A stretch of 64,000 nucleotides of DNA, taken from the NCBI RefSeq assembly GCF_054482525.1, contig NZ_CM137006.1, one strand, 5' to 3'. The notes beneath the pieces were generated by a model. It made no database searches, was not told where the DNA came from, and saw only the letters and a program-made list of their open reading frames with translations. Position numbers and translations under genes: made by a program. Of the stretch, positions 1,662 to 30,753 are shown one piece after another. Numbering within the stretch: position 1 is the first letter of the stretch; each line of letters starts with the position of its first letter.

Positions 1662-2450
1662 ATGGCCTATCGTTCCGCACCGCTCTATGAAGATGTTATC
1701 TGGCGAACGCATCTCCAGCCGCAGGATGCTGGGCTTGCACAAGCCATACGGGCGACGATCGCCGAACATCGTGAACATTTGCTCGAGTTTATCCGCCTGG
1801 ATGAACCCGCTCCGCTTAACGCCATGACGCTGGCGCAATGGTCATCAACGAATGCGCTAAGTTCTCTACTCGCGGTCTATTCCGATCATATCTATCGCAA
1901 CCAACCAACGATGATCCGCGAGAACAAACCGCTGATCTCACTATGGGCGCAATGGTATATCGGCCTGATGGTGCCACCGTTAATGTTGGCGCTGCTGACG
2001 CAGGAAAAAGCATTAGATGTGTCGCCGGAACATTTCCACGTTAAGTTTCACGAAACCGGACGCGCCGCCTGTTTCTGGGTCGATGTGTGTGAAGATAAAA
2101 ACGCAACACTACATTCGCCGCAGCAGCGAATGGAAACGTTAATCAGTCAGGCGCTGGTTCCGGTAGTGCAGGCATTAGAAGCAACGGGAGAGATCAACGG
2201 CAAACTTATCTGGAGCAATACCGGTTATTTGATCAACTGGTATCTGACTGAGATGAAACAGCTGCTTGGCGAGGCGACGGTTGAATCGCTGCGCCATGCC
2301 CTCTTTTTTGAGAAAATGCTCACGAACGGTGAAGATAATCCACTCTGGCGTACCGTGGTACTGCGCGACGGCCTGCTGGTGCGCCGCACTTGCTGCCAGC
2401 GTTATCGCTTACCGGATGTGCAGCAATGTGGCGATTGTACGCTGAAATGA
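1662..2450 (+). CDS. fhuF: ferric-siderophore reductase, 2Fe-2S protein
   Basis: 262 aa; C-terminal CC-x10-C-x2-C motif (CCQRYRLPDVQQCGDC). Confidence 0.9.
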   Translation: MAYRSAPLYEDVIWRTHLQPQDAGLAQAIRATIAEHREHLLEFIRLDEPAPLNAMTLAQWSSTNALSSLLAVYSDHIYRNQPTMIRENKPLISLWAQWYIGLMVPPLMLALLTQEKALDVSPEHFHVKFHETGRAACFWVDVCEDKNATLHSPQQRMETLISQALVPVVQALEATGEINGKLIWSNTGYLINWYLTEMKQLLGEATVESLRHALFFEKMLTNGEDNPLWRTVVLRDGLLVRRTCCQRYRLPDVQQCGDCTLK

Positions 2451-2487: not shown

Positions 2488-3165
2488 TTAATAGGGATGC
2501 AACACATTACTTGCTTCGCAATGCCGCATACATAACAGAATATCTGCGGCCTCCAACAACCCTGCATCAGAACTGACGCCCAGTTTCGACATCACATTAA
2601 ATTTATGTGCACGGATCGTTTTGATATTGCGTTTAAGCTGCTCGGCAATTTGTGTCATTGAGTAGCCACGCGACATAAAGCGCAATATTTCTCTCTCCGT
2701 CGGGCTTAGCGTTCGGCTTTGATTAATGTACCACTGATTGTTCAGTCGGTCGGTCGCCTGACGTACACCATTTAATGACAAAAAGAGTTCCTGATGAAAA
2801 ATCTCCAGCGTTGACGCTTTACTTAATACACCGTCCAACGGTGATGGCGACAATGAACCAATCAGCCGAGCTTCAATATCATCATCCGCAATAACTAAAC
2901 GCCGGGTACGCGGAAACTTAATCGCCAGTTCAGTCAGGCAAGATAATCCCTCTCTGCGCTCACTTCTCATGGCAGAAAAAGAAAAAATGACCGCCGCAAA
3001 CGAGATCCGCGACATGGCATCCTGAAATGACTCCTGACTGGTATAGGTATGGAGCTTATAAGGGTTACCCGCAAACTTTCTGAATAAACTCTCAATACCG
3101 ATACTACTCATGACGCATTTTTCTATGAGTGCGACATTTCTCTTCTTAATTCGGCTGTGTTCCAT
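2488..3165 (-). CDS. bglJ: LuxR/FixJ-type transcriptional regulator
   Basis: 225 aa; C-terminal LuxR HTH ([36 protein letters not shown]); overlaps yjjQ 3' end. Confidence 0.85.
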
Positions 3166-3848
3166 TCTGCGGCATCTCCATAAACAGAAGGCAAGTTAAG
3201 TTCTCTTGCACCCTGCGCGCTATTTATCCATGCATACATTTCAGCGTTGCTGTGAATTGCCAGTCGACGCATCGCACTGTTTTTTTGGGCGCTGATAGTT
3301 TTATTACTTTTCTTAAGCAATGAAGCTATCTGGTTGATGCCCCATCCTTTACCTAATAGCCGCAGCACTTTGCGCTCTGAAAGAGTGAGAATGACGGAGC
3401 GATAGCTAAAATCATGAGTTTCAGTCATTGCCGGAGAGGTCAGCATGGCGCTGATACGCTCTGCGTGCGTATTGCCGGAACGTACGGTCTTGACCAGATT
3501 CTCAATGGGTTCAACATCAGACAATAACGTCGCCGTAGGGCACATGAGCAATTCTACTGCCTGGGAATACCAGGAGCGTGACACCATGAAAACCCAGTGA
3601 ATTTCCCGATATTGCGAGATTAAAGAATAATAATGTTCACAAACAGAACGTGGATCTTCACTTTCACCGGCTAAATCAGCAATGACTAATCCGGAACGAC
3701 GTAATTGTAATAAGGTAAGGTCCTCCGCAGAGGCGCTGGATATTATTTCATATTCAGGGAAGTGAGTCCTCATGACCTCTTTTAACCCTGCTTGCATAAC
3801 AGGTATTTTACTGATAACAATTCCATTTTTGCAGCATCCTGGCAACAT
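3123..3848 (-). CDS. yjjQ: LuxR-type transcriptional regulator
   Basis: 241 aa; LuxR HTH ([34 protein letters not shown]); upstream of and overlapping bglJ. Confidence 0.85.
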
Positions 3849-4466
3849 ATTTCCTCCACATCCACTGTCTAAAAATTATGATGGTTTATTCAGGATATTC
3901 ATTCCTTAAATGTTTCCAGCAAATTAATAGATTAAGCGAATAAATTATCCTTAGCATTCACTTTCATATCAGCATACTCCTGCTGCACAACAACTCCACT
4001 GCATGTGTCAGAAGGTTAGCATCAAATGATAACCTAGTGAAATAGCCTGGAGACATTTAAAATATCTACATTAAGTTGTTAGAAATACTTAATGAAAAAC
4101 AGAATTCTCATTCATTTAATTTATAATTAACTGATATCCCTTCCAGTAGAATGCAAAATCACACAATCAATATTTATTCAATAAAATCTGATAGTTTTAA
4201 CTTGTAAAAAATAAAAAACGCGCCCAGTTATCTTTTATCCTGATTCGTAAAGGCTAAACAATAAATTCATTATAGTGATAATATTCATGTGATAATTTGT
4301 TTGCGGCGAGAGATAATTCGCTTTTTATCACCGAGCTTCTCCCGATAACCAGGATTAATCAGCGCAATTTTGATCTTAACCTACCGCAAAACAACCGTGC
4401 TTCATGATACAAATGGATTCTCATTATCTGAACAATACGCAGCACGTCTATGACAAAGGGCGAGTT

Positions 4467-5237
4467 ATGCAAACTGAGCAACAGCGAGCCGTAACACGGC
4501 TTTGTATCCAGTGTGGATTATTTCTTTTGCAACATGGTGCCGAAAGCGCGTTGGTTGATGAGCTTTCCTCACGACTGGGTCGGGCGTTGGGAATGGACAG
4601 CGTCGAAAGTTCTATCTCTTCGAACGCCATAGTGCTGACAACCATTAAAGATGGGCAATGCCTGACATCGACACGAAAAAATCACGATCGCGGCATTAAT
4701 ATGCATGTGGTGACTGAAGTCCAGCACATTGTGATTCTGGCGGAGCATCATCTGCTGGATTACAAAGGTGTAGAGAAACGATTTAGCCAAATTCAGCCAT
4801 TACGTTACCCGAGATGGCTGGTAGCCTTAATGGTCGGCCTTTCTTGCGCCTGTTTCTGTAAACTCAATAAAGGTGGCTGGGATGGTGCCGTCATCACCTT
4901 CTTTGCCAGTACGGTCGCGATGTATATCCGCCAGCTGCTGGCACAACGTCATCTTCATCCACAGATCAACTTTTGCCTCACCGCTTTCGCCGCCACCACC
5001 ATTTCCGGTTTGCTTTTGCAACTTCCCACTTTCAGCAATACACCCACTATCGCGATGGCCGCCAGCGTTCTGCTGCTGGTGCCGGGTTTTCCGTTGATTA
5101 ATGCCGTCGCCGATATGTTTAAAGGCCACATCAATACCGGACTGGCACGCTGGGCGATCGCCAGTCTGCTGACACTGGCTACCTGCGTCGGCGTGGTGAT
5201 GGCACTGACGATTTGGGGGCTACGCGGATGGGTGTGA
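4467..5237 (+). CDS. yjjP: ThrE-family exporter subunit (inner membrane)
   Basis: ORF opens at 4404; start taken at Met 4467 (256 aa) from memory of K-12 length; hydrophobic C-terminal half; overlaps yjjB. Confidence 0.75.
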
Positions 5238-15786: not shown

Positions 15787-16233
15787 TTATTCATTATCGC
15801 CCGGGATGTCTTCTTGTCGGGAATTACCCAGAGCAATAAATTCCTCTAACAGATGGGTTAACTGTTGCATTTTCTCGGCAGTAAACTGAGCTTCAATCTG
15901 CCGATAGGCTTCTTCAATCTGTGTCTGAGCGCGGTTATACAGGGCCTGCCCCTCTTTGGTCAGCGAGATATAGAGCTTCCGCTGATCATTGATCGGCTTT
16001 AATCGCAACACTAAACCGTCGCGTTCCATCCGCGTGAGGATCCCGGTCAGGCTTGGGCGCAAAATGCAGGCGCGATACGCCAGATCGTGAAAATCCATTG
16101 ATGGGCTTTCCGCCAGAATACGCACGATGCGCCACTGTTGCTCTGTCAAATTATGCCGTTTAACGATTGGGCGAAAATAACTCATCGCCGCTTCTCGCGC
16201 CTGGAGCAACGCAATGGTTAGTGAGTCGTGCAT
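15787..16233 (-). CDS. hpaR: MarR-family repressor of homoprotocatechuate degradation
   Basis: 148 aa from MHDSLTIALLQ; MarR winged helix; divergent from hpaG. Confidence 0.85.
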   Translation of the reverse strand: MHDSLTIALLQAREAAMSYFRPIVKRHNLTEQQWRIVRILAESPSMDFHDLAYRACILRPSLTGILTRMERDGLVLRLKPINDQRKLYISLTKEGQALYNRAQTQIEEAYRQIEAQFTAEKMQQLTHLLEEFIALGNSRQEDIPGDNE

Positions 16234-16504
16234 TATCTTTCCCCTGAAAAATTCAAAATCATTAATATAGAAACAGTTAATCATCACGTTACCGGGACTG
16301 CGCTGCCCCTGCAATTCTTCATTTTATCAAAATTGAGCATGTTTTGTTAACTTACTGATATTTAATATTTTATTATCTTTAAATGTAAATAGTTTGTTAA
16401 TTAGATCACATTTACATCACTTACTTTTGCCAAACTACGCAATCGGGAATAAAAGTAATCATTAACATATTAATGATTAAGATGATCGAATCCGAGGAGT
16501 GGTA
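16234..16504. promoter_or_regulatory. divergent hpaR / hpaG promoter-operator region
   Basis: AT-rich 270-bp spacer between divergent starts; RBS GGAG before hpaG ATG; HpaR operators expected here (not individually resolved). Confidence 0.4.
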
Positions 16505-17794
16505 ATGAAAGGCACTATCTTCGCCGTAGCGTTGAACCATCGCAGCCAACTTGATGCATGGCAGGAAGCGTTCCAGCAATCCCCCTACAAAGCCCCGCCT
16601 AAAACTGCGGTCTGGTTTATTAAACCGCGCAATACGGTGATTGGTTGCGGTGAACCGATTCCCTTTCCACAGGGTGAAAAGGTACTGAGCGGTGCGACTG
16701 TTGCGCTGATTGTGGGAAAAACGGCGACGAAAGTACGTGAAGAAGATGCAGCAGAGTACATCGCCGGATATGCGCTGGCTAACGACGTCAGCCTGCCGGA
16801 AGAGAGCTTTTACCGCCCGGCAATCAAAGCAAAATGTCGTGATGGATTCTGCCCCATTGGCGAAACCGTGGCTCTCAGCAATGTCGATAATCTGACCATC
16901 TATACCGAGATCAACGGGCGTCCTGCCGATCACTGGAACACCGCCGATTTACAACGTAATGCCGCGCAGTTGCTGAGCGCTCTGAGCGAATTTGCCACGC
17001 TGAATCCAGGCGATGCCATTCTGCTCGGCACGCCACAGGCGCGCGTGGAAATACAGCCAGGCGATCGCGTTCGTGTTCTCGCTGAAGGTTTCCCGCCACT
17101 GGAAAATCCGGTAATGGACGAACGTGAAGTGACCACGCGCAAGAGCTTCCCAACGCAGCCACACCCGCACGGCACGCTGTTTGCCCTCGGCCTGAACTAC
17201 GCCGACCACGCCAGCGAACTGGAATTTAAGCCACCGGAAGAACCGCTGGTGTTCCTGAAAGCGCCGAATACCCTCACTGGCGATAACCAGACCTCCGTGC
17301 GCCCGAACAATATTGAATATATGCACTACGAAGCGGAGCTGGTGGTGGTGATTGGCAAGCAGGCGCGTAACGTCAGCGAAGCCGATGCTATGGATTATGT
17401 CGCGGGCTACACCGTGTGTAACGACTACGCCATTCGCGACTATCTGGAAAACTACTACCGCCCTAACCTGCGGGTAAAAAGCCGCGACGGACTGACGCCG
17501 ATGCTTTCAACCATCGTGCCGAAAGAGGCGATCCCGGACCCGCATAATCTGACCCTTCGCACCTTCGTCAACGGCGAGTTACGCCAGAAAGGCACCACCG
17601 CCGATCTGATCTTCAGCGTGCCCTTCCTGATCGCCTACTTAAGCGAATTTATGACCCTGAATCCGGGCGACATGATCGCCACCGGCACACCAAAAGGCTT
17701 ATCTGACGTGGTGCCTGGCGATGAAGTAGTAGTGGAAGTAGAAGGCGTGGGCCGCCTGGTGAACCGAATTGTGAGTGAGGAAACAGCGAAATGA
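16505..17794 (+). CDS. hpaG: bifunctional 5-oxopent-3-ene-1,2,5-tricarboxylate decarboxylase / 2-hydroxyhepta-2,4-diene-1,7-dioate isomerase (tandem FAH-fold)
   Basis: 429 aa; two homologous halves; first gene of meta-cleavage operon. Confidence 0.88.
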   Translation: MKGTIFAVALNHRSQLDAWQEAFQQSPYKAPPKTAVWFIKPRNTVIGCGEPIPFPQGEKVLSGATVALIVGKTATKVREEDAAEYIAGYALANDVSLPEESFYRPAIKAKCRDGFCPIGETVALSNVDNLTIYTEINGRPADHWNTADLQRNAAQLLSALSEFATLNPGDAILLGTPQARVEIQPGDRVRVLAEGFPPLENPVMDEREVTTRKSFPTQPHPHGTLFALGLNYADHASELEFKPPEEPLVFLKAPNTLTGDNQTSVRPNNIEYMHYEAELVVVIGKQARNVSEADAMDYVAGYTVCNDYAIRDYLENYYRPNLRVKSRDGLTPMLSTIVPKEAIPDPHNLTLRTFVNGELRQKGTTADLIFSVPFLIAYLSEFMTLNPGDMIATGTPKGLSDVVPGDEVVVEVEGVGRLVNRIVSEETAK

Positions 17795-19257
17795 AAAAAG
17801 TAAATCATTGGATCAACGGCAAAAATGTTGCAGGTAACGACTACTTCCAGACCACCAATCCGGCAACGGGTGAAGTGCTGGCGGATGTGGCCTCTGGCGG
17901 TGAAGCGGAGATCAATCAGGCGGTAGCGGCAGCGAAAGAGGCGTTCCCGAAATGGGCCAATCTGCCGATGAAAGAGCGTGCGCGCCTGATGCGCCGTCTG
18001 GGCGATCTGATCGACCAGAACGTGCCTGAGATCGCCGCGATGGAAACCGCGGACACGGGCCTGCCAATCCATCAGACCAAAAATGTGTTGATCCCACGCG
18101 CTTCTCACAACTTTGAATTTTTCGCGGAAGTCTGCCAGCAGATGAACGGCAAGACCTATCCGGTTGACGACAAGATGCTCAACTACACGCTGGTGCAACC
18201 GGTAGGCGTTTGTGCGCTGGTATCGCCGTGGAACGTGCCGTTTATGACCGCCACATGGAAGGTCGCGCCGTGTCTGGCGCTGGGCAATACCGCGGTGTTG
18301 AAAATGTCGGAACTCTCCCCGCTGACCGCTGACCGCCTGGGTGAGCTGGCGCTGGAAGCCGGTATTCCGGCGGGCGTGCTGAACGTGGTACAGGGCTACG
18401 GCGCAACCGCAGGCGATGCGCTGGTTCGTCATCATGACGTACGTGCCGTGTCGTTCACCGGCGGTACGGCCACCGGGCGCAACATCATGAAAAACGCCGG
18501 GCTGAAAAAATACTCCATGGAACTGGGCGGTAAATCGCCGGTGCTGATTTTTGAAGATGCCGATATTGAACGCGCGCTGGACGCTGCCCTGTTCACCATC
18601 TTCTCGATCAACGGCGAGCGCTGCACCGCCGGTTCGCGCATCTTTATTCAGCAAAGCATCTACCCGGAATTCGTTAAACGCTTTGCCGAACGCGCCAACC
18701 GTCTGCGCGTGGGCGATCCGAACGATCCGAATACCCAGGTTGGGGCGCTTATCAGCCAGCAACACTGGGAAAAAGTCTCCGGCTATATTCGTCTCGGCAT
18801 TGAAGAAGGCGCAACCCTGCTGGCGGGCGGTCCGGATAAACCGTCCGACCTGCCTGCGCACCTGAAAGGCGGCAACTTCCTGCGCCCAACGGTGCTGGCT
18901 GACGTTGATAACCGTATGCGCGTCGCCCAGGAAGAGATTTTCGGGCCGGTCGCCTGTCTGCTGCCGTTTAAAGACGAAGCCGAAGGCTTACGTCTGGCAA
19001 ACGACGTGGAGTACGGCCTCGCGTCGTACATCTGGACACAGGATGTCAGCAAAGTGTTACGCCTGGCGCGTGGCATTGAAGCAGGCATGGTGTTCGTCAA
19101 CACCCAGAACGTGCGTGACCTGCGCCAGCCATTTGGCGGCGTAAAAGCCTCCGGCACCGGGCGTGAAGGCGGTGAGTACAGCTTCGAAGTGTTCGCGGAA
19201 ATGAAGAACGTCTGCATTTCCATGGGCGACCATCCAATTCCGAAATGGGGAGTCTGA
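17791..19257 (+). CDS. hpaE: 5-carboxymethyl-2-hydroxymuconate semialdehyde dehydrogenase (NAD aldehyde dehydrogenase)
   Basis: 488 aa; aldehyde dehydrogenase active-site region; ATGA overlap with hpaG. Confidence 0.9.
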   Translation: MKKVNHWINGKNVAGNDYFQTTNPATGEVLADVASGGEAEINQAVAAAKEAFPKWANLPMKERARLMRRLGDLIDQNVPEIAAMETADTGLPIHQTKNVLIPRASHNFEFFAEVCQQMNGKTYPVDDKMLNYTLVQPVGVCALVSPWNVPFMTATWKVAPCLALGNTAVLKMSELSPLTADRLGELALEAGIPAGVLNVVQGYGATAGDALVRHHDVRAVSFTGGTATGRNIMKNAGLKKYSMELGGKSPVLIFEDADIERALDAALFTIFSINGERCTAGSRIFIQQSIYPEFVKRFAERANRLRVGDPNDPNTQVGALISQQHWEKVSGYIRLGIEEGATLLAGGPDKPSDLPAHLKGGNFLRPTVLADVDNRMRVAQEEIFGPVACLLPFKDEAEGLRLANDVEYGLASYIWTQDVSKVLRLARGIEAGMVFVNTQNVRDLRQPFGGVKASGTGREGGEYSFEVFAEMKNVCISMGDHPIPKWGV

Positions 19258-19258
19258 T

Positions 19259-20110
19259 ATGGGTAAGTTAGCGTTAGCCGCCAAGATCACGCACGTACCG
19301 TCGATGTATCTCTCTGAACTGCCAGGGAAAAACCACGGTTGCCGCCAGGGTGCGATTGACGGGCATAAAGAGATCAGCAAGCGTTGCCGGGAAATGGGCG
19401 TCGATACCATTATCGTTTTCGATACCCACTGGCTGGTCAACAGTGCTTATCACATCAACTGTGCAGACCATTTTGAAGGCGTCTACACCAGCAACGAGCT
19501 GCCGCATTTTATCCGCGATATGACCTACAACTACGAGGGCAACCCGGAGTTGGGGCAGCTTATTGCCGATGAAGCCTTAAAACTCGGCGTGCGGGCAAAA
19601 GCGCACAATATTCCCAGCCTGAAACTGGAATACGGCACGCTGGTGCCAATGCGCTACATGAATGAAGACAAGCACTTCAAAGTGGTCTCCATTTCGGCTT
19701 TCTGCACGGTTCACGATTTTGCCGACAGCCGCAAGCTTGGCGAAGCGATTGTGAAAGCGATCGAACAGTACGACGGCACCGTGGCGGTCCTTGCCAGCGG
19801 TTCGTTATCGCACCGCTTTATTGACGATCAGCGTGCGGAAGAAGGGATGAACAGCTACACCCGCGAGTTCGACCGCCAGATGGACGAGCGCGTGGTGAAG
19901 CTGTGGCGCGAAGGCCAGTTCAAAGAGTTCTGCAATATGCTGCCGGAGTACGCCGACTACTGCTACGGCGAAGGCAATATGCACGACACGGTGATGCTGC
20001 TGGGGATGCTCGGCTGGGATAAATACGACGGCAAGGTGGAGTTTATTACCGAGCTGTTCCCAAGCTCTGGCACTGGTCAGGTTAACGCTGTTTTCCCGCT
20101 TCCCGCGTAA
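19259..20110 (+). CDS. hpaD: 3,4-dihydroxyphenylacetate 2,3-dioxygenase (extradiol)
   Basis: 283 aa; starts 2 bp after hpaE stop. Confidence 0.88.
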   Translation: MGKLALAAKITHVPSMYLSELPGKNHGCRQGAIDGHKEISKRCREMGVDTIIVFDTHWLVNSAYHINCADHFEGVYTSNELPHFIRDMTYNYEGNPELGQLIADEALKLGVRAKAHNIPSLKLEYGTLVPMRYMNEDKHFKVVSISAFCTVHDFADSRKLGEAIVKAIEQYDGTVAVLASGSLSHRFIDDQRAEEGMNSYTREFDRQMDERVVKLWREGQFKEFCNMLPEYADYCYGEGNMHDTVMLLGMLGWDKYDGKVEFITELFPSSGTGQVNAVFPLPA

Positions 20111-20119
20111 GGAACCACC

Positions 20120-20500
20120 ATGCCGCACTTTATCGTGGAATGTACTGAAAATATTCGTCAAGAAGCCCGCTTACCTGAGCTGTTTGCCAGTGTTAACACC
20201 GCACTGGCGGCGACGGGGATTTTTCCGCTTGGGGGAATACGTAGCCGGGCGCACTGGATCGATACCTGGCAAATGGCCGATGGCAAGCACGATTACGCCT
20301 TTGTGCATATGACGCTAAAAATCGGCAGCGGGCGCAGTCTGGAAAGCCGTCAGGAAGTAGGTGAAATGCTGTTTGATCTGATTAAAACGCACTTCGCCTC
20401 ACTGATGGAGAGCCGTTACCTGGCGCTTTCATTTGAGATTGCAGAGCTGCACCCGACGTTGAATTTCAAACAGAACAACGTACACGCGTTGTTTAAATAA
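20120..20500 (+). CDS. hpaF: 5-carboxymethyl-2-hydroxymuconate isomerase
   Basis: 126 aa; N-terminal MPHFIVECT. Confidence 0.88.
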
Positions 20501-20567
20501 ATTTGCACCAGCTTCCAGGCCGGATGATAAGGCGCAGCCGCATCCGGCAATGCCACAGGATATCGCC

Positions 20568-21371
20568 ATGTTCGATAAACACACCCACACCCTGATCGCC
20601 CAGCGTCTGGATCAGGCAGAAAAACAGCGCGAACAGATCCGCGCGATCTCGCTGGATTACCCGGAGATCACCATCGAAGACGCTTACGCGGTGCAGCGTG
20701 AATGGGTTCGACTGAAAATCGCCGAAGGTCGCACGCTGAAAGGCCACAAAATCGGCCTGACCTCGAAAGCGATGCAGGCCAGCTCACAAATCAGCGAGCC
20801 GGATTACGGTGCCCTGCTGGATGACATGTTCTTCCACGATGGCAGCGATATCCCGACCGATCGCTTTATCGTGCCGCGCATTGAAGTGGAGCTGGCTTTC
20901 GTGCTGGCAAAACCGCTGCGTGGGCCAAACTGCACGCTGTTCGACGTTTACAACGCCACGGACTATGTGATCCCGGCGCTGGAGCTGATCGACGCTCGCT
21001 GCCACAACATCGATCCGGAAACCCAGCGCCCGCGTAAAGTGTTCGACACCATTTCTGATAACGCCGCCAATGCCGGGGTGATCCTCGGTGGTCGTCCGAT
21101 CAAACCTGACGAGCTGGATCTGCGTTGGATCTCCGCCCTCATGTATCGCAATGGCGTGATTGAAGAAACCGGCGTCGCCGCTGGTGTGCTGAATCATCCG
21201 GCAAACGGCGTGGCCTGGCTGGCGAACAAACTCGCACCGTATGACGTACAACTGGAAGCCGGGCAAATCATTCTCGGCGGTTCGTTCACCCGCCCGGTTC
21301 CGGCGCGTAAGGGCGACACCTTCCACGTCGATTACGGCAACATGGGTTCCATTAGCTGCCGCTTTGTTTAA
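20568..21371 (+). CDS. hpaH: 2-oxo-hept-4-ene-1,7-dioate hydratase
   Basis: 267 aa from MFDKHTH; FAH-fold hydratase. Confidence 0.88.
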
Positions 21372-21381
21372 GGAGAGAACG

Positions 21382-22170
21382 ATGGAAAACAGTTTTAAAG
21401 CGGCGCTGAAAGCAGGCCGCCCGCAGATCGGATTATGGCTGGGGCTAAGTAGCAGCTACAGCGCAGAGTTACTGGCCGGAGCAGGATTCGACTGGTTATT
21501 GATCGACGGTGAGCACGCGCCGAATAACGTGCAAACCGTGCTCACCCAACTACAGGCGATTGCGCCCTATCCCAGCCAGCCGGTAGTACGTCCGTCGTGG
21601 AACGATCCGGTGCAAATCAAACAACTGCTGGACGTCGGCACACAAACCTTACTGGTGCCGATGGTACAAAACGCCGACGAAGCCCGTGAAGCGGTACGCG
21701 CCACCCGTTATCCCCCCGCCGGTATTCGTGGTGTGGGCAGTGCGCTGGCCCGCGCCTCGCGCTGGAATCGTATTCCTGATTACCTGCAAAAAGCCAACGA
21801 TCAAATGTGCGTGCTGGTGCAGATCGAAACGCGTGAGGCAATGAAGAACCTACCGCAGATTCTGGACGTGGAAGGGGTAGACGGCGTGTTTATCGGCCCG
21901 GCGGATCTGAGCGCCGATATGGGTTATGCCGGTAATCCGCAGCACCCGGAAGTGCAGGCCGCCATTGAACAGGCGATCGTGCAAATCCGTGAAGCGGGCA
22001 AAGCGCCGGGGATCCTGATCGCCAATGAGCAACTGGCAAAACGCTACCTGGAACTGGGCGCGCTATTTGTCGCCGTCGGCGTTGACACCACCCTGCTCGC
22101 CCGCGCCGCCGAAGCGCTGGCAGCACGGTTTGGCGCGCAGGCTACAGCGATTAAGCCCGGCGTGTATTAA
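21382..22170 (+). CDS. hpaI: 4-hydroxy-2-oxo-heptane-1,7-dioate aldolase (class II, HpcH/HpaI)
   Basis: 262 aa from [29 protein letters not shown] upstream. Confidence 0.9.
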
Positions 22171-22250
22171 TGCCGGATGCGCTGCGCTTATCCGGCCTAC
22201 ACTCGCACCAAACCGTAGGCCGGATAAGGCGTTTACGCCGCATCCGCCAT
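22171..22250. repeat. pair of REP elements (BIME-like) between hpaI and hpaX
   Basis: TGCCGGATGCGCTGCGCTTATCCGGCCTAC and inverted GTAGGCCGGATAAGGCGTTTACGCCGCATCCGCC. Confidence 0.7.
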
Positions 22251-22293
22251 AAACCTTGTCGTACCCTACAAAAATCCCATTAGAGGAAGAAAA

Positions 22294-23670
22294 ATGAGCG
22301 ACACCTCACCTGCCATACCGGAAAGTATCGATCCGGCAAATCAGCATAAAACGCTGACTGCCGGACAACAGGCGGTTATTAAGAAGCTGTTTCGCCGCCT
22401 GATCGTCTTTCTGTTCGTGCTGTTTATCTTCTCGTTCCTTGATCGCATCAACATCGGCTTTGCCGGGCTCACGATGGGACGCGACCTCGGTCTGAGCGCC
22501 ACCATGTTTGGCCTCGCCACCACCCTGTTCTACGCCGCTTATGTCATCTTCGGCATTCCCAGCAACATTATGCTGAGTATTGTCGGTGCGCGGCGCTGGA
22601 TCGCCACCATCATGGTGCTTTGGGGCATCGCCTCTACGGTCACCATGTTTGCCACTGGCCCCACCAGCTTGTACGTACTGCGCATACTGGTTGGCATTAC
22701 CGAAGCCGGCTTTCTGCCTGGCATTCTGCTGTATTTAACCTTCTGGTTTCCGGCCTATTTCCGCGCCCGTGCCAACGCCTTGTTTATGGTAGCAATGCCG
22801 GTAACGACAGCGTTGGGATCGATCGTTTCCGGCTACATTTTGTCGCTGGATGGCGTAATGGCATTAAAAGGCTGGCAGTGGCTGTTTTTGCTGGAAGGCT
22901 TCCCGTCGGTATTACTCGGCGTCATGGTGTGGTTCTGGCTTGATGACTCACCGGACAAAGCTAAGTGGCTGACGAAAGAAGACAAAAAATGCCTGCAAGA
23001 GATGATGGATAACGATCGTCTGACGCTGGTTCAGCCAGAGGGAGCCATCAGCCACCACGCCATGCAACAACGCAGCATGTGGCGGGAGATCTTCACTCCG
23101 GTGGTGATGATGTATACCCTGGCGTATTTCTGCCTGACCAACACACTTAGTGCAATCAGCATCTGGACACCGCAGATCCTACAAAGCTTTAATCAGGGTA
23201 GCAGTAATATCACCATCGGCCTGCTGGCCGCCGTACCGCAGATTTGTACCATTCTCGGGATGATCTACTGGAGCCGTCACTCAGATCGCCGCCAGGAACG
23301 AAGGCATCACACCGCCCTTCCTTATTTGTTCGCTGCCGCTGGTTGGTTACTGGCTTCGGCAACTGATCACAACATGATCCAGATGCTGGGGATCATTATG
23401 GCTTCGACCGGATCATTCAGCGCAATGGCGATTTTCTGGACAACACCGGATCAGTCCATCAGCCTGCGGGCACGAGCGATCGGTATTGCGGTGATCAACG
23501 CCACTGGCAACATTGGTTCAGCATTAAGTCCGTTTATGATCGGCTGGTTGAAAGATCTGACCGGCAGCTTTAACAGTGGATTGTGGTTTGTTGCCGCGCT
23601 GCTGGTGATTGGTGCGGGGATTATCTGGGCGATTCCAATGCAGTCCTCCCGTCCGCGAGCGACCCCGTAA
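22294..23670 (+). CDS. hpaX: 4-hydroxyphenylacetate permease (MFS)
   Basis: 458 aa, 12-TM MFS. Confidence 0.88.
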   Translation: MSDTSPAIPESIDPANQHKTLTAGQQAVIKKLFRRLIVFLFVLFIFSFLDRINIGFAGLTMGRDLGLSATMFGLATTLFYAAYVIFGIPSNIMLSIVGARRWIATIMVLWGIASTVTMFATGPTSLYVLRILVGITEAGFLPGILLYLTFWFPAYFRARANALFMVAMPVTTALGSIVSGYILSLDGVMALKGWQWLFLLEGFPSVLLGVMVWFWLDDSPDKAKWLTKEDKKCLQEMMDNDRLTLVQPEGAISHHAMQQRSMWREIFTPVVMMYTLAYFCLTNTLSAISIWTPQILQSFNQGSSNITIGLLAAVPQICTILGMIYWSRHSDRRQERRHHTALPYLFAAAGWLLASATDHNMIQMLGIIMASTGSFSAMAIFWTTPDQSISLRARAIGIAVINATGNIGSALSPFMIGWLKDLTGSFNSGLWFVAALLVIGAGIIWAIPMQSSRPRATP

Positions 23671-23679
23671 GGAACGACG

Positions 23680-24570
23680 ATGTGTGACCGTCAGATTGCC
23701 AATATTGATATCAGCAAAGAGTACGATGAAAGCCTGGGTACTGACGATGTGCATTATCAGTCGTTCGCCCGCATGGCGGCATTTTTTGGCCGCCATATGC
23801 TGCCACATCGCCACGAACAGTACTTTCAGATGCATTTCCTCAATAGCGGACAGATTGAGCTACAGCTTGACGATCATCGCTACTCGGTGGAAGCGCCCCT
23901 GTTTGTCCTGACGCCACCGTCAGTACCTCATGCGTTTATTACGGAGTCTGACGCCGACGGTCATGTGTTGACGGTACGGGAAGATCTGATCTGGCCCCTG
24001 CTGGAAGTTCTTTATCCGGGCACTCGGGAAACCTTCGGCCTGCCGGGGATTTGCCTGTCACTGGCAGATAAACCCGACGAACTGGCGGCGCTGGAACACT
24101 ATTGGCAACTGATAGAGCGGGAATCGGTAGAACAACTGCCTGGACGGGAACACACCCTGACGCTACTGGCACAGGCAGTGTTCACCCTACTGCTGCGTAA
24201 CGCAAAACTCGACGACCATGCCGCCAGCGGGATGCGCGGAGAATTAAAACTGTTCCAACGTTTTCATATGCTGATTGAAAGCCATTTTCACCAGCACTGG
24301 ACAGTACCGGATTACGCTAACGAACTGCATATCACCGAATCACGACTCACGGACATCTGCCGTCGCTTTGCCAACCGTCCGCCAAAACGGTTGATTTTCG
24401 ACAGGCAGCTGCGAGAAGCCAAACGGCTGCTGCTGTTTTCTGATAACGCCGTGAACAATATTGCCTGGCAACTCGGTTTTAAGGATCCGGCTTATTTTGC
24501 CCGCTTTTTTAATCGCTTAGTCGGTTGCTCGCCCAGTGCTTATCGTGCCAAAAAAGTACCTGTGACGTGA
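23680..24570 (+). CDS. hpaA: AraC/XylS-family activator of hpaBC
   Basis: 296 aa; C-terminal AraC HTH (IAWQLGFKDPAYFARFFNRLVGCSPSAYR). Confidence 0.85.
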   Translation: MCDRQIANIDISKEYDESLGTDDVHYQSFARMAAFFGRHMLPHRHEQYFQMHFLNSGQIELQLDDHRYSVEAPLFVLTPPSVPHAFITESDADGHVLTVREDLIWPLLEVLYPGTRETFGLPGICLSLADKPDELAALEHYWQLIERESVEQLPGREHTLTLLAQAVFTLLLRNAKLDDHAASGMRGELKLFQRFHMLIESHFHQHWTVPDYANELHITESRLTDICRRFANRPPKRLIFDRQLREAKRLLLFSDNAVNNIAWQLGFKDPAYFARFFNRLVGCSPSAYRAKKVPVT

Positions 24571-24820
24571 AAATCCCTTAGCCTTAACGGGAAACCAGGC
24601 ACCACCTGCTATTCCCCTTTCTCCGCCTGGAGCAAGGGGATTTAGTAACGTTAAAAATCGTTAAAAGCGACCTCGATCACAAAACCGTACCCGACATGAA
24701 AAGTACCAGCCATTGTCCCAAAAGTGTCTTCCCGTAATCGCCCCTGCAAGCTTCAATTGAATAACAAAAACAACACACAAAATTAACAATCGTATTCCGA
24801 TTAATACTGTAGAGGTCGAC
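24571..24820 (+). promoter_or_regulatory. hpaBC promoter region (HpaA-dependent)
   Basis: 250-bp non-coding gap upstream of hpaB; individual sites not resolved. Confidence 0.35.
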
Positions 24821-26383
24821 ATGAAACCAGAAGATTTCCGCGCCAGTACCCAACGTCCGTTCACCGGGGAAGAGTATCTGAAAAGCCTGCAGGATGGTCG
24901 AGAGATCTATATCTATGGCGAGCGAGTGAAAGACGTCACCACTCATCCGGCATTTCGTAATGCGGCAGCGTCTGTTGCCCAACTGTACGACGCGCTACAC
25001 AAACCGGAGATGCAGGACTCTCTGTGTTGGAACACCGACACCGGCAGCGGCGGCTATACCCATAAATTCTTCCGCGTGGCGAAAAGTGCCGACGACCTGC
25101 GCCAGCAACGCGACGCCATCGCTGAGTGGTCACGCCTGAGCTATGGCTGGATGGGCCGTACCCCAGACTACAAAGCTGCTTTCGGTTGCGCACTGGGCGC
25201 GAATCCGGGCTTTTACGGTCAGTTCGAGCAGAACGCCCGTAACTGGTACACCCGTATTCAGGAAACTGGCCTCTACTTTAACCACGCGATTGTTAACCCA
25301 CCGATCGATCGTCATTTGCCGACCGATAAAGTAAAAGACGTTTACATCAAGCTGGAAAAAGAGACTGACGCCGGGATTATCGTCAGCGGTGCGAAAGTGG
25401 TTGCCACCAACTCGGCGCTGACTCACTACAACATGATTGGCTTCGGCTCGGCACAAGTGATGGGCGAAAACCCGGACTTCGCACTGATGTTCGTTGCGCC
25501 AATGGATGCCGATGGCGTGAAATTAATCTCCCGCGCCTCTTATGAGATGGTCGCGGGTGCTACCGGCTCGCCGTACGACTACCCGCTCTCCAGCCGCTTC
25601 GATGAGAACGATGCGATTCTGGTGATGGATAACGTGCTGATCCCATGGGAAAACGTGCTGATCTACCGCGATTTTGATCGCTGCCGTCGCTGGACGATGG
25701 AAGGCGGTTTCGCCCGTATGTATCCGCTGCAAGCCTGTGTGCGCCTGGCAGTGAAATTAGACTTCATTACGGCACTGCTGAAAAAATCACTCGAATGTAC
25801 CGGCACCCTGGAGTTCCGTGGCGTGCAGGCCGATCTCGGTGAAGTGGTGGCGTGGCGCAACACCTTCTGGGCATTGAGTGACTCGATGTGTTCAGAAGCA
25901 ACGCCGTGGGTCAACGGGGCTTATTTACCGGATCATGCCGCACTGCAAACCTATCGCGTACTGGCACCAATGGCCTACGCGAAGATCAAAAACATTATCG
26001 AACGCAACGTTACCAGTGGCCTGATCTATCTCCCTTCCAGTGCCCGTGACCTGAACAATCCGCAGATCGACCAGTATCTGGCGAAGTATGTGCGCGGTTC
26101 GAATGGTATGGATCACGTCCAGCGCATCAAGATCCTCAAACTGATGTGGGATGCCATTGGCAGCGAATTTGGTGGTCGTCACGAACTGTATGAAATCAAC
26201 TACTCCGGTAGCCAGGATGAGATTCGCCTGCAGTGTCTGCGCCAGGCACAAAGCTCCGGCAATATGGACAAGATGATGGCGATGGTTGATCGCTGCCTGT
26301 CGGAATACGACCAGAACGGCTGGACTGTGCCGCACCTGCACAACAACGACGATATCAACATGCTGGATAAGCTGCTGAAATAA
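24821..26383 (+). CDS. hpaB: 4-hydroxyphenylacetate 3-monooxygenase, oxygenase component
   Basis: 520 aa; two-component flavin-dependent monooxygenase large subunit. Confidence 0.93.
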   Translation: MKPEDFRASTQRPFTGEEYLKSLQDGREIYIYGERVKDVTTHPAFRNAAASVAQLYDALHKPEMQDSLCWNTDTGSGGYTHKFFRVAKSADDLRQQRDAIAEWSRLSYGWMGRTPDYKAAFGCALGANPGFYGQFEQNARNWYTRIQETGLYFNHAIVNPPIDRHLPTDKVKDVYIKLEKETDAGIIVSGAKVVATNSALTHYNMIGFGSAQVMGENPDFALMFVAPMDADGVKLISRASYEMVAGATGSPYDYPLSSRFDENDAILVMDNVLIPWENVLIYRDFDRCRRWTMEGGFARMYPLQACVRLAVKLDFITALLKKSLECTGTLEFRGVQADLGEVVAWRNTFWALSDSMCSEATPWVNGAYLPDHAALQTYRVLAPMAYAKIKNIIERNVTSGLIYLPSSARDLNNPQIDQYLAKYVRGSNGMDHVQRIKILKLMWDAIGSEFGGRHELYEINYSGSQDEIRLQCLRQAQSSGNMDKMMAMVDRCLSEYDQNGWTVPHLHNNDDINMLDKLLK

Positions 26384-26400
26384 CGCAGCAGGAGGTTAAG

Positions 26401-26913
26401 ATGCAATTAGATGAACAACGCCTGCGCTTTCGTGACGCAATGGCCAGCCTGTCGGCAGCGGTAAATATTATCACCACCGAGGGCAACGCCGGGCAATGCG
26501 GGATTACGGCAACGGCTGTCTGCTCGGTCACGGATACACCACCGTCGCTGATGGTGTGCATTAACGCCAACAGTGCGATGAACCCGGTTTTTCAGGGCAA
26601 CGGTAAGTTGTGCGTCAACGTCCTCAACCATGAGCAGGAACTGATGGCACGCCACTTCGCGGGCATGACAGGCATGGCGATGGAAGAGCGTTTTAGCCTC
26701 TCATGCTGGCAAAAAGGTCCGCTGGCGCAGCCGGTGCTAAAAGGTTCGCTGGCCAGTCTTGAAGGTGAGATCCGCGATGTGCAGGCAATTGGCACACATC
26801 TGGTGTATCTGGTGGAGATTAAAAACATCATCCTCAGTGCAGAAGGTCACGGACTTATCTACTTTAAACGCCGTTTCCATCCGGTGATGCTGGAAATGGA
26901 AGCTGCGATTTAA
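26401..26913 (+). CDS. hpaC: 4-hydroxyphenylacetate 3-monooxygenase, NADH:flavin reductase component
   Basis: 170 aa flavin reductase; RBS GGAGG before ATG. Confidence 0.9.
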   Translation: MQLDEQRLRFRDAMASLSAAVNIITTEGNAGQCGITATAVCSVTDTPPSLMVCINANSAMNPVFQGNGKLCVNVLNHEQELMARHFAGMTGMAMEERFSLSCWQKGPLAQPVLKGSLASLEGEIRDVQAIGTHLVYLVEIKNIILSAEGHGLIYFKRRFHPVMLEMEAAI

Positions 26914-26919
26914 GCTCCA

Positions 26920-26955
26920 GCCCCTTCACGTATTCGTCGAAGGGGCATTTTTATT
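26920..26955 (+). terminator. rho-independent terminator after hpaC
   Basis: GCCCCTTC-loop-GAAGGGGC followed by ATTTTTATT. Confidence 0.65.
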
Positions 26956-26970
26956 GTGATCTCAATCACA
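26955..26970. promoter_or_regulatory. CRP-binding site candidate (TGTGA-N6-TCACA)
   Basis: Perfect TGTGAtctcaaTCACA; about 335 bp upstream of btsT start. Confidence 0.45.
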
Positions 26971-27305
26971 TATCCACCCGATGAATAATTCTTGCCCAAC
27001 CGCTCACCGCCATTCCTGACCGCTTACATCCCTAAAATAACCACTCAGTTATTTACCTTACTTTATGCGCGCGTAACTCTGGCAACATCACTGCAGGATA
27101 GCGGTCAATTTACCTCCTCAAACGCAACGCAAACCTAGAACGGCTTCGGCCTATGATTAACAAATTACTCTATGGATTTTGGTTTGCAGGAAGGCAGCAA
27201 GTGAGTGAATCCCCGGGAGCTTACAACAGTAAGTGACAGGGGTGAACGAACGCAGCTGCCGCACCTGTAAGCCAAAAGACGACGAGTAAAATGCCAGGTT
27301 TTACT

Positions 27306-29456: not shown

Positions 29457-29465
29457 CCGTGTTTA

Positions 29466-29492
29466 GCCCCGCTTCGGCGGGGCTTTGTTCTT
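29466..29492 (+). terminator. rho-independent terminator after btsT
   Basis: GCCCCGC-ttcg-GCGGGGC then TTTGTTCTT. Confidence 0.7.
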
Positions 29493-29505
29493 ATCAGAGT
29501 GAACT

Positions 29506-29709
29506 ATGTTTGGTAACTTAGGACAGGCAAAAAAATATCTCGGCCAGGCGGCGAAGATGTTGATTGGCATTCCAGACTACGACAACTACGTCGAGCATAT
29601 GAAGACCAACCATCCCGACAAGCCGTACATGAGCTATGAAGAATTCTTCCGCGAACGCCAGAACGCGCGCTACGGCGGCGATGGTAAAGGCGGTATGCGC
29701 TGTTGTTAA
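29506..29709 (+). CDS. yjiX: small DUF466-family protein
   Basis: 67 aa; conserved partner of cstA/btsT-type genes. Confidence 0.8.
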
Positions 29710-29719
29710 TGGAGAGAGC

Positions 29720-30676: not shown

Positions 30677-30713
30677 CCAGCCCTCCAACATCACAATACC
30701 TGAGACTTTATCA

Positions 30714-30740
30714 CCCTCATATTCCTCCTGAATATGAGGG
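30714..30740. terminator. hairpin between convergent yjiA and pac (bidirectional terminator candidate)
   Basis: CCCTCATATTC-ctcct-GAATATGAGGG. Confidence 0.5.
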
Positions 30741-30753
30741 CTTTCGGGCTTAA

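Follow-up and report, generated by a model that had tools for sequence, protein, structure and literature searches.

The yjjQ-bglJ operon of Escherichia coli is repressed by H-NS and activated by LeuO (PMC5025477, citing Stratmann 2008), and H-NS has been marked at the spacer that separates yjjQ from the divergently transcribed yjjP gene (Shimada 2014, PMC3946193). Both the silencing of this spacer by H-NS and its antagonism by LeuO are already published, in agreement with what a preliminary description of the sequence had stated.

We have analyzed the spacer as it occurs in a 64,000-nucleotide stretch of DNA (64 kb; hereafter the window) that is 100% identical to E. coli PCN033. The preliminary description had drawn attention to a short direct repeat and to GATAAT-type hexamers, which it likened to the architecture of a Fur box, and had asked whether Fur or another regulator acts on yjjP. 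In our judgment the interval is likely to be the already known region that controls yjjQ-bglJ in one direction and yjjPB in the other, silenced by H-NS and reopened by LeuO, with GATAAT sequences that are -10-like words rather than Fur boxes and with a proximal promoter serving yjjPB.

Experimental Procedures

The Fur PWM was built from 13 K-12 Fur promoters, which gave leave-one-out scores of 10.9-22.6 bits (median about 16.5 bits). A Fur box was defined as either a 19-bp site with a score in the range of known E. coli sites or at least three contiguous, in-phase NATWAT hexamers. The H-NS PWM, with motif tCGATAAATT, was made from Table 1 of Lang 2007 (PMC2094087). The LeuO core palindrome ATATTCA-N5-TGAATAT was reconstructed from the cas and leuO spacers, two loci only, and the description given by Fragel 2019 is consistent with it.

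Results

In the RefSeq annotation of the identical PCN033 record, yjjQ lies at 3123-3848 on the minus strand and yjjP begins at 4467 on the plus strand, so the non-coding interval is 3849-4466 and has a length of 618 bp. The identification of the genes in the preliminary description, yjjQ-bglJ divergent from yjjPB, agrees with this annotation. The left edge and non-coding character that it assigned to the interval also hold, but its right edge (4403) and its length (555 bp) do not. The figure of 555 bp traces to an older in-frame upstream ATG at 4404, which begins a 277-aa ORF. The start at 4467 (MQTEQQRA...) is aligned from residue 1 in most of 80 related loci, and the segment 4404-4466 is not conserved as coding sequence, its frame being broken by indels in Citrobacter. 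Conservation backs the 256-aa YjjP start, a by-product of modest use. The features of the locus are collected in Table 1.

Table 1. Features of the yjjQ-yjjP region, in window coordinates
Feature	Position	Strand	Basis
yjjQ CDS (LuxR-type regulator; first gene of yjjQ-bglJ)	3123..3848	-	RefSeq annotation of identical PCN033 record
yjjQ-yjjP divergent intergenic region, AT-rich silencing region, 618 bp	3849..4466		RefSeq annotation, GC
LeuO core-like site, 12/14, yjjQ leader region	3895..3913		Ties for best score in 64-kb window
Predicted yjjQ promoter: -35 CTGATA (3972..3967), 17-nt spacer, -10 GATAAT (3949..3944)	3944..3972	-	Promoter scan
Low-GC spacer center; 3 of 4 best H-NS motif matches (4112, 4171, 4178)	4112..4187		Lang 2007 PWM, GC
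LeuO core-like site, 11/14, spacer center	4155..4173		One of seven scoring at least 11/14 in 64-kb window
GTGATAAT copy 1; its GATAAT (4277-4282) is a -10-like hexamer	4275..4282	+	Promoter-like match TAAACA-16-GATAAT ends here
Escherichia-conserved core TGATAATATTCAT with exact LeuO core half-site ATATTCA (4281-4287)	4276..4288		Invariant in 6 Escherichia sequences, flanks diverge
GTGATAAT copy 2, minority allele; TGTGATAAT resembles extended -10	4289..4296	+	Sequence, allele comparison
Third plus-strand GATAAT, within weak hairpin plus T-run at 4305-4322	4312..4317	+	Kept only within E. coli and the clade nearest to it
Enterobacteriaceae-wide element upstream of yjjP, tTTTtgCAcAaann-TTGATCT-nan-CCag	4357..4383	+	Conservation; TTGATC at 4370-4375
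Extended -10-like TGATACAAA, consensus TGnTAaAA	4405..4413	+	Conserved spacing to TTGATC
ATTATC (minus-strand GATAAT), inside 14/19 Fur-consensus match 4410-4428	4423..4428	-	Fur PWM only 10.3 bits
yjjP CDS (putative succinate exporter subunit), 256-aa form	4467..5237	+	RefSeq annotation, conservation of start

The AT-richness noted earlier is confirmed. In 200-bp windows the GC fraction is 0.25-0.36 between 3801 and 4400 and about 0.45-0.59 in the flanking DNA; the lowest values, 0.25-0.27, are those of the spacer center. This composition is kept in 51 orthologous spacers (median GC 0.36 vs 0.55 in yjjPB). No RNA family with an E value of 1 or less was detected in an Rfam scan of 3600-4700, and a search for small ORFs in the spacer found none that was conserved or notable.

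Four H-NS motif matches in the spacer score at least 8/10 and a further 13 score 7/10. The best are mostly central, with the top match at 3922, and the count is not above that of dinucleotide shuffles (P = 0.23). LeuO core-like sites are present at 12, 11, and 10 of 14 positions of a motif that derives from two loci only, and the maximum of 12/14 is equaled in 3% of shuffles. The spacer contains two exact LeuO half-sites where 0.38 are expected (P about 0.03-0.05); half-sites of at least 6/7 are not enriched there (7 vs 6.1). The LeuO motif evidence is marginal. In the mechanism that we propose, about 620 bp of AT-rich DNA would be coated and silenced by H-NS and reopened by LeuO.

GATAAT or its complement ATTATC is found at 3944, 4277, 4291, 4312, and 4423, and the enrichment is real in the PCN033 strain because dinucleotide shuffles lead one to expect 0.97 occurrences rather than five (P = 0.0013). 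These hexamers may be regarded as AT-rich, -10-like words of a promoter type. The minus-strand GATAAT at 3949..3944 is likely to be the -10 element of yjjQ. Shimada 2014 (PMC3946193) gives the same -35 and -10 hexamers for yjjQ-bglJ as our promoter scan, and AAGGATAAnnAATTCA at the predicted promoter is kept in Escherichia, Citrobacter, and Salmonella. The BglJ-RcsB core wwTTCykA showed only a partial fit to TATTCATG.

The direct repeat is exact as described, with GTGATAAT at 4275-4282 and again at 4289-4296, a spacing of 14. An exact 8-mer direct repeat within 30 bp is seen in 27-32% of spacer shuffles, and the repeat is thus within chance level (P about 0.3). The identical 50-bp allele is carried by 267 of 5414 E. 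coli genomes. In K-12, copy 1 reads ATGATAAT and copy 2 reads GTGATAGT; the latter form, with GATAGT, is also found at copy 2 in three of four other sampled E. coli alleles. The TGATAAT core of copy 1 is kept in six of six Escherichia sequences, copy 2 is not conserved in other species of the genus, and nothing around the repeat is conserved outside it. Copy 1 is part of the 13-bp core TGATAATATTCAT, which contains an exact LeuO core half-site, so that this core probably falls within the LeuO site placed over a yjjP promoter in the literature. Judged from these alignments, copy 2 appears to have arisen recently, to vary among strains, and to be under no visible constraint. An origin of the repeat by 14-bp tandem duplication was rejected: in other Escherichia species the place of copy 2 is taken by an equally long but unrelated sequence, which makes point changes the likelier origin.

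A conserved block of 57 bp (4357-4413) lies 75-130 bp downstream of the repeat. Its TTGATC hexamer is invariant in 70 of 70 species. The surrounding sequence TTGATCTTAACCTA (4370-4383) agrees with the FNR consensus at 8 of 10 positions and is the top FNR match in the spacer, a level reached by 41 matches in the 64-kb window. The first half-site, TTGAT, is perfect and invariant. In the second half the conserved sequence is nCCAg, in which a C takes the place of the T favored by FNR. A [T/G]GnTA element stands at a fixed distance from TTGATC, without gaps in 60 of the 70 species, such that 29 nt separate TTGATC from the -10-like sequence. From this arrangement we infer a yjjPB transcription start at about 4418-4421. 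A minus-strand reading of the block, with TATCAT as the -10, was rejected because that hexamer is unconserved outside Escherichia and Citrobacter. TCATCCAAA is a proposed mutant form of TGATACAAA.

Published genome-scale data bear on the same part of the spacer. An FNR ChIP-seq peak assigned to yjjP/yjjQ, for which yjjP is the estimated target and the PWM ln(p) is -7.95, lies at the yjjP-proximal end (Myers 2013). This peak was called by only two of three ChIP-seq algorithms, and loss of hns and stpA raised FNR occupancy from 0.32 to 0.66. In the same study a sigma-70 ChIP-seq peak is located at U00096.2 4600950, equivalent to about 4398 in the window, and its signal increases from 163 under aerobic to 907 under anaerobic conditions. 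The fold-change values for yjjP and yjjB are 0.49 and 0.43, respectively; with the direction taken from comparator genes in the same table, these would correspond to expression about twofold higher anaerobically. Deletion of fnr left yjjP expression unchanged in glucose minimal medium (Myers 2013, Table S9). The ArcA ChIP supplement has no entry for yjjP.

Insertion sequences selected in the mouse gut have been published at -111 (window 4356), at -185 (about 4282, in the repeat itself), and at -256 relative to yjjP; each of the three is upstream of the 4357-4413 block. Insertions of this kind emerged in 57% of wild-type mouse gut populations, and yjjP expression was up about twofold in a clone that carried the -111 insertion plus other mutations.

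The block, with its FNR-like TTGATC half-site, 29-nt gap, and extended -10, would most likely be an activator-dependent, anaerobically favored promoter, and in E. coli this proximal yjjPB promoter would be dampened by H-NS. We tentatively suggest that this block, and not the AT-rich DNA upstream, is the physiologically relevant yjjPB promoter, that TTGATC is read by FNR or another regulator so that the genes may be switched on in the anaerobic gut, and that the H-NS-bound DNA upstream dampens the promoter. Dampening of this kind would explain the repeated selection in the gut of insertions just upstream of the block. As the start site is only deduced, the regulator could be a protein other than FNR.

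A second, rather doubtful possibility is that one or more distal yjjP promoters, with starts near 4289-4325, use the plus-strand GATAAT hexamers (the repeat pair and the one at 4312), which a LeuO site overlaps, as their -10 elements, and that the repeat therefore matters as core promoter DNA. The promoter-like combinations TAAACA-16-GATAAT (ending at 4282) and GTGATA-17-GATAAT (ending at 4317) are consistent with such promoters, as are the resemblance of TGTGATAAT to an extended -10, the location between the copies of an exact LeuO half-site (4281-4287), and the retention in Escherichia of the core around copy 1. One LeuO site reportedly overlaps the yjjP promoter within the "555-bp" spacer, and by that numbering the yjjP transcription start would lie upstream of 4404. 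However, the sigma-70 peak at about 4398 stands over 100 bp beyond the repeat on the yjjP side. In most sampled strains, moreover, copy 2 has the weaker form GATAGT, and nothing in this part of the spacer is conserved beyond Escherichia. Two of the gut-selected insertions also speak against distal promoters, since they lie downstream of the repeat (-111) and within it (-185), and yjjP expression was raised, not abolished, in the clone with the -111 insertion. Should the mapped yjjP start coincide with the repeat, the block nearer the gene would be an additional promoter or would belong to the leader.

The suggestion that a regulator other than Fur acts on yjjP fares better than Fur itself, in that an exact LeuO half-site stands between the copies and FNR and BasR are tied to yjjP in published genome-scale data. 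It is unlikely, all the same, that any metal response of yjjP runs through binding of the Fe3+/Zn2+-sensing BasS-BasR system in the spacer. The spacer contains no match to the BasR box, in which TTAAnnTT is directly repeated. A literature search on BasR with yjjP found no papers. In favor of BasR, "H-NS, BasR" are given as the known regulators of yjjP in Table S9 of Myers 2013, citing Ogasawara 2012.

Less probable still is a weak CRP/FNR-family site far upstream of yjjP in the conserved core TGATAATATTCA (TGA-N6-TCA). Although AGTGATAATATTCATG agrees with the CRP consensus and GTGATAATATTCAT with the FNR consensus at 7 of 10 positions each, and the TGA...TCA dyad is invariant in Escherichia, matches at 7/10 are very common (315 of FNR type at that level in the window). 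Furthermore, K-12 falls to 6/10 for CRP, as read from the alignment, and the published FNR peak is about 100-180 bp nearer yjjP.

The PWM scan had been set beforehand as the test that could refute a role for Fur, and here the Fur reading fails. The repeat reaches 8.3 bits, and the highest-scoring site of the spacer has 11.7 bits, a value attained or exceeded by 37% of 2000 composition-matched spacer shuffles. At the fhuF-yjjZ promoter (1540-1581), a positive control inside the window, the same PWM gives 24.4, 20.0, 16.5, and 15.4 bits. The architecture likened to a Fur box is thus not borne out: spacings of 14 and 21 bp leave the GATAAT copies neither contiguous nor in phase for a Fur hexamer array, and 51 orthologous spacers have no conserved Fur-like site (median best score 10.2 bits, with no shared position). 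Chance scores of 12-15.5 bits occur elsewhere in the window, and four of these were mapped, to hpaB, yjiM, iatD, and the hpaG-hpaR spacer. Some weak binding of Fur could nevertheless take place, because the lowest leave-one-out scores of genuine Fur promoters (fur, 10.9 bits; exbB, 11.4 bits) overlap that of the 11.7-bit site.

Other observations that might be taken to favor Fur are the matches to its 19-bp consensus at 4271 (13/19) and 4410 (14/19), the presence of five hexamers where about one is expected, and the induction of bglJ along with the Fur regulon in iron-poor serum (Huja 2014). Nevertheless, the 14-bp spacing of the copies is out of phase for contiguous hexamers, copy 2 is GATAGT in most sampled E. 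coli, no Fur box was detected for yjjQ-bglJ by Huja 2014, and only bglJ is reported as induced there. Antisense read-through from fhuF offers a simpler explanation of the serum result, since bglJ converges on this Fur-regulated gene, their stop codons being 37 bp apart without a predicted terminator in between. In Myers 2013 the regulators given for yjjP are H-NS and BasR, not Fur, and the Fur-masked category does not contain yjjP. The main text of Beauchene 2015 makes no mention of yjj genes. Direct repression of yjjPB (or yjjQ-bglJ) by Fe2+-Fur at a degenerate Fur box or hexamer array is in our view highly improbable, and the Fur hypothesis is already close to refuted.

Discussion

The spacer is a textbook-type H-NS/LeuO region and has little significance as originally flagged. 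The finding is ordinary because the region has already been studied and the GATAAT words appear promoter-like and strain-variable and not to be Fur boxes. The analysis makes three additions to the known locus: the exact GTGATAAT duplication belongs to a minority allele, its two copies flank an exact LeuO half-site, and the sole family-wide conserved element is yjjP-proximal. This conserved proximal block is a concrete, mutable target for anaerobic induction of the YjjPB succinate exporter, and it offers an explanation for the adaptive insertions that arise in the spacer in the gut.

The likeness to the Fur box (GATAATGATAATCATTATC; NATWAT hexamer arrays; fhuF-yjjZ) consists of the GATAAT word, the AT-richness, and two spacer 19-mers at 13-14/19. 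The Fur box at fhuF-yjjZ gives 15-24 bits compared with 8-12 bits in the yjjQ-yjjP spacer. In addition, the hexamers of the spacer are non-contiguous, out of phase, and not conserved, and its scores are not above those of composition-matched shuffles.

The proximal block bears comparison with class II FNR promoters, which have TTGAT-N4-ATCAA near -41.5. It shares the perfect TTGAT half-site in 70 species, and the fixed 29-nt gap would center its site at about -41.5 to -43.5 relative to the inferred start, but its second half-site is nCCAg and not ATCAA. FNR may act at yjjP as it does at the H-NS-masked FNR sites (Myers et al. 2013), with which yjjP shares an FNR peak, higher occupancy without H-NS and StpA, and more anaerobic sigma-70. 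Nevertheless, unlike FNR-activated promoters, yjjP showed no effect of fnr deletion on its expression in glucose minimal medium (Myers 2013).

The closest match is to the H-NS-silenced, LeuO-antagonized divergent promoters of E. coli, among them bgl, leuO, cas, and the same locus (Stratmann et al. 2008), where the genes and the spacer are the same. The spacer shows no essential difference from these regions. It shares with them a strongly AT-rich center, and it may also share clustered H-NS motif matches, which are no more frequent than composition predicts, and candidate LeuO core-like sites. Insertion sequences that raise expression are common to bgl and the yjjQ-yjjP spacer.

Extent of the yjjQ-yjjP Spacer

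At 100% identity, the window matches the chromosome of E. coli PCN033. All but two of the 5426 complete E. coli genomes (5424) have this segment. K-12 has the identical gene arrangement, with YjjP and YjjB annotated as putative succinate exporters. Because yjjQ reaches 3848 and yjjP begins at 4467, the true spacer between these divergent genes is 618 bp (3849-4466). The preliminary description had rightly recognized a non-coding interval but had ended it at 4403, giving 555 bp, because of an in-frame ATG at 4404. From sequence comparison we take 4467 as the real yjjP start, since YjjP relatives in most of 80 related loci align from residue 1 of the MQTEQQRA start and the preceding 63 nt (4404-4466) show no conservation as a coding region. 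The ATG at 4404 corresponds to an older YjjP start (277 amino acids); the start at 4467 is kept across 70 species. At ~16000-32000, between tsr and yjiA, the strain has an hpa (4-hydroxyphenylacetate) cluster and a penicillin G acylase gene; neither is known in K-12.

Features of the yjjQ-yjjP region (window positions)
Feature	Position	Strand	Basis or remark
fhuF	1662-2450	+	RefSeq annotation
bglJ	2488-3165	-	RefSeq annotation
yjjQ	3123-3848	-	RefSeq annotation
yjjP, then yjjB	from 4467	+	RefSeq annotation
yjjQ promoter-like match	3949..3944 (-10 GATAAT)	-	promoter scan; CTGATA 17 nt upstream
yjjP-directed promoter-like matches	4277, 4291, 4312 (GATAAT)	+	promoter scan
LeuO core-like site	3895		motif scan, 12/14
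LeuO core-like site	4155		motif scan, 11/14
LeuO core-like site	4281		motif scan, 10/14
IS5 insertion	~4211		-256 from yjjP
IS2 insertion	~4282		-185 from yjjP; inside the GTGATAAT repeat
IS1 insertion	~4356		-111 from yjjP; abuts edge of proximal block
Extended -10-like element TGATACAAA	4405-4413		reads as extended -10

Composition, Hexamers, and the Direct Repeat

The AT-richness noted in the preliminary description was borne out, with a GC content of 0.25-0.36 over the spacer versus ~0.45-0.59 in the flanks, and is kept in 51 orthologous spacers (median GC 0.36 versus 0.55 in yjjPB). The direct repeat and hexamers that it had described are also present: GTGATAAT occurs at 4275-4282 and 4289-4296, and five GATAAT/ATTATC hexamers lie at 3944, 4277, 4291, 4312, and 4423, compared with 0.97 expected from dinucleotide shuffles of the spacer (P = 0.0013). 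GATAAT-type hexamers are missing from most of the orthologous spacers (median 0). GATAAT matches the sigma-70 -10 hexamer at 5/6 positions, and the spacer copies are probably sigma-70 -10-like promoter words. The yjjQ-bglJ promoter is given with the same hexamers as our yjjQ match by Shimada 2014 (PMC3946193), and AAGGATAAnnAATTCA at this match is kept in Escherichia, Citrobacter, and Salmonella.

The exact direct repeat belongs to a minority allele and is no more than expected by chance. When this AT-rich spacer is shuffled, 27-32% of the products contain an 8-mer direct repeat within 30 bp, so its occurrence is unsurprising. Among 5414 E. coli genomes, just 267 have the identical 50-bp allele that carries the repeat; K-12 has ATGATAAT...GTGATAGT, and of five further E. 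coli alleles sampled, four have GATAGT as the second copy. No second copy can be recognized in three other Escherichia species, in which TGATAATATTCAT (4276-4288) is invariant. The third GATAAT is enclosed in an E. coli-specific hairpin followed by a T-run (4305-4322; GGCGAGAGATAATTCGCT TTTTATC), which is too weak to count as a terminator.

Fur

The hexamers had been likened to Fur-box architecture, an interpretation that is not supported. Thirteen K-12 promoter regions well known to be under Fur control served to train a 19-bp Fur position weight matrix (PWM), which was refined iteratively; in leave-one-out analysis these promoters scored 10.9-22.6 bits (median ~16.5). The fhuF-yjjZ divergent promoter (1540-1581), inside the window, was the positive control: its overlapping box array scored 24.4, 20.0, 16.5, and 15.4 bits, with boxes matching the consensus at 16/19 and 15/19 positions, and the promoter still scored 22.6 bits when excluded from training. 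The best spacer sites scored 11.7 bits (4088) and 10.3 bits (4410) and the GTGATAAT repeat 8.3 bits; when the spacer was dinucleotide-shuffled 2000 times, 37% of the products reached at least 11.7 bits. The GATAAT copies, 14 and 21 bp apart, do not have the phasing of a contiguous hexamer array. Outside the spacer, the window has chance matches of 12-15.5 bits, four of which map to hpaB, yjiM, iatD, and the hpaG-hpaR spacer; those within the hpaB, yjiM, and iatD coding regions (25981, 40279, and 47166; 13.7-15.5 bits) mark the background level. No conserved Fur site was found in the 51 orthologous spacers, where the median best score was 10.2 bits and the few higher matches had no common position. 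An 18.1-bit Fur-like site in Citrobacter sp. Awk 4 (GAAAATGAAATTAATTAGC), ~540 bp upstream of yjjP and beside yjjQ, is conserved in none of the remaining orthologous spacers. The weakest genuine Fur promoters (fur and exbB) also score ~11 bits, so weak Fur binding may occur here, but nothing positive supports it. Myers 2013 does not have yjjP among the promoters masked by Fur.

Huja 2014 includes bglJ among serum-induced genes, marking H-NS and LeuO as regulators and no computed Fur box. The convergent fhuF and bglJ genes have 37 bp between their stop codons (2450-2488) with no terminator-like hairpin, and along the fhuF strand none is reached until 2699-2717, within bglJ. This arrangement offers a simple alternative explanation for the serum induction, in which transcription of iron-induced fhuF would continue into bglJ in the antisense direction.

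LeuO and H-NS

The spacer is the already known H-NS/LeuO-controlled region of yjjQ-bglJ and yjjPB, as the preliminary description had held for yjjQ-bglJ, and its sequence features are real. A LeuO core motif was derived by comparing two K-12 loci, the cas and leuO spacers, which yielded ATATTCA-TACTG-TGAATAT and ATATTGA-TTTGG-TGAATAT. Two of the seven window sites matching at least 11/14 positions lie in the spacer, which also has two exact half-sites versus 0.38 expected (P ~0.03-0.05 for the site and half-site counts). Looser half-sites are not enriched in the spacer, so the statistical support for LeuO sites is marginal. One exact half-site, ATATTCA (4281-4287), is situated between the GTGATAAT copies and within the Escherichia-conserved core, in agreement with LeuO sites that reportedly occupy the spacer center, with one more overlapping the yjjP promoter. 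Dispersed direct repeats (3891-3911 and 4100-4120, 21 nt, 76% identity; 4104-4112 and 4417-4425, ATTCTCATT, exact) each include ATTC(A/T)CAT-type words similar to the LeuO half-site and may be additional LeuO contacts or have arisen by chance.

Matches to the H-NS motif tCGATAAATT (Lang 2007; PMC2094087) fall mostly in the spacer center (4112-4187), with the top match at 3922. Their density in the spacer is not above composition expectation, as expected because H-NS reads AT-richness. Myers 2013, citing Ogasawara 2012, names BasR among the regulators of yjjP; BasR belongs to a two-component system that responds to Fe3+/Zn2+. No BasR site was located by scanning the spacer for a direct repeat of TTAAnnTT, the BasR box.

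A Conserved, Probable Promoter Block Upstream of yjjP

The most useful new detail is a proximal block, conserved throughout the family, that is probably a promoter of yjjPB. An alignment covered the 135 nt preceding yjjP in 70 species, including genera with ~2.6 kb inserted between yjjQ and yjjP. The block (4357-4413) has the consensus tTTTtgCAcAaann-TTGATCT-nan-CCag...(fixed spacing)...TGnTAaAA. TTGATC (4370-4375) is invariant in 70/70 Enterobacteriaceae species and is followed after 29 nt by TGnTAaAA, the TGnTA element keeping the same ungapped distance in 60/70. DNA farther upstream, the GTGATAAT repeat included, is unalignable outside Escherichia. Since TGATACAAA reads as an extended -10, yjjP transcription is predicted to start at ~4418-4421, with a leader of ~47 nt. 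The spacer's best FNR-consensus match, TTGATCTTAACCTA (8/10), would be centered at ~-41.5 to -43.5 of this start. Matches of 8/10 are common (41 in the window), and the position of the second FNR half-site is kept as nCCAg, not ATCAA.

Experimental evolution lends independent support to the block as a yjjP control element. In published work on E. coli evolving in wild-type mice, 57% of the populations acquired IS elements in the spacer. All three mapped insertions (IS1, IS2, and IS5) are upstream of the block, and yjjP expression was raised ~twofold in a clone with the -111 insertion and other mutations, as expected if the DNA downstream of 4356 holds a sufficient promoter and the AT-rich DNA upstream is inhibitory. 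The raised expression may alternatively come from an outward promoter of IS1.

Published genome-scale data also fit the placement of the yjjP control element in the proximal block. Supplementary positions of Myers 2013 (U00096.2) were converted via the yjjP start. That study reports an FNR ChIP-seq peak at yjjP/yjjQ, with yjjP the estimated target (centers at ~4398-4453; PWM ln(p) = -7.95), found by 2/3 peak callers; in the absence of hns and stpA, the FNR ChIP-chip signal is 0.66 instead of 0.32. Deletion of fnr left yjjP expression unchanged in glucose minimal medium, and yjjP is not listed in the ArcA ChIP data. A sigma-70 ChIP-seq peak at ~4398 increases from 163 aerobically to 907 anaerobically, and the fold-changes of 0.49 for yjjP and 0.43 for yjjB, read against comparator genes in the same table, indicate ~twofold higher anaerobic expression. 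The proximal block is likely linked to anaerobic, possibly FNR-dependent, expression of yjjPB.
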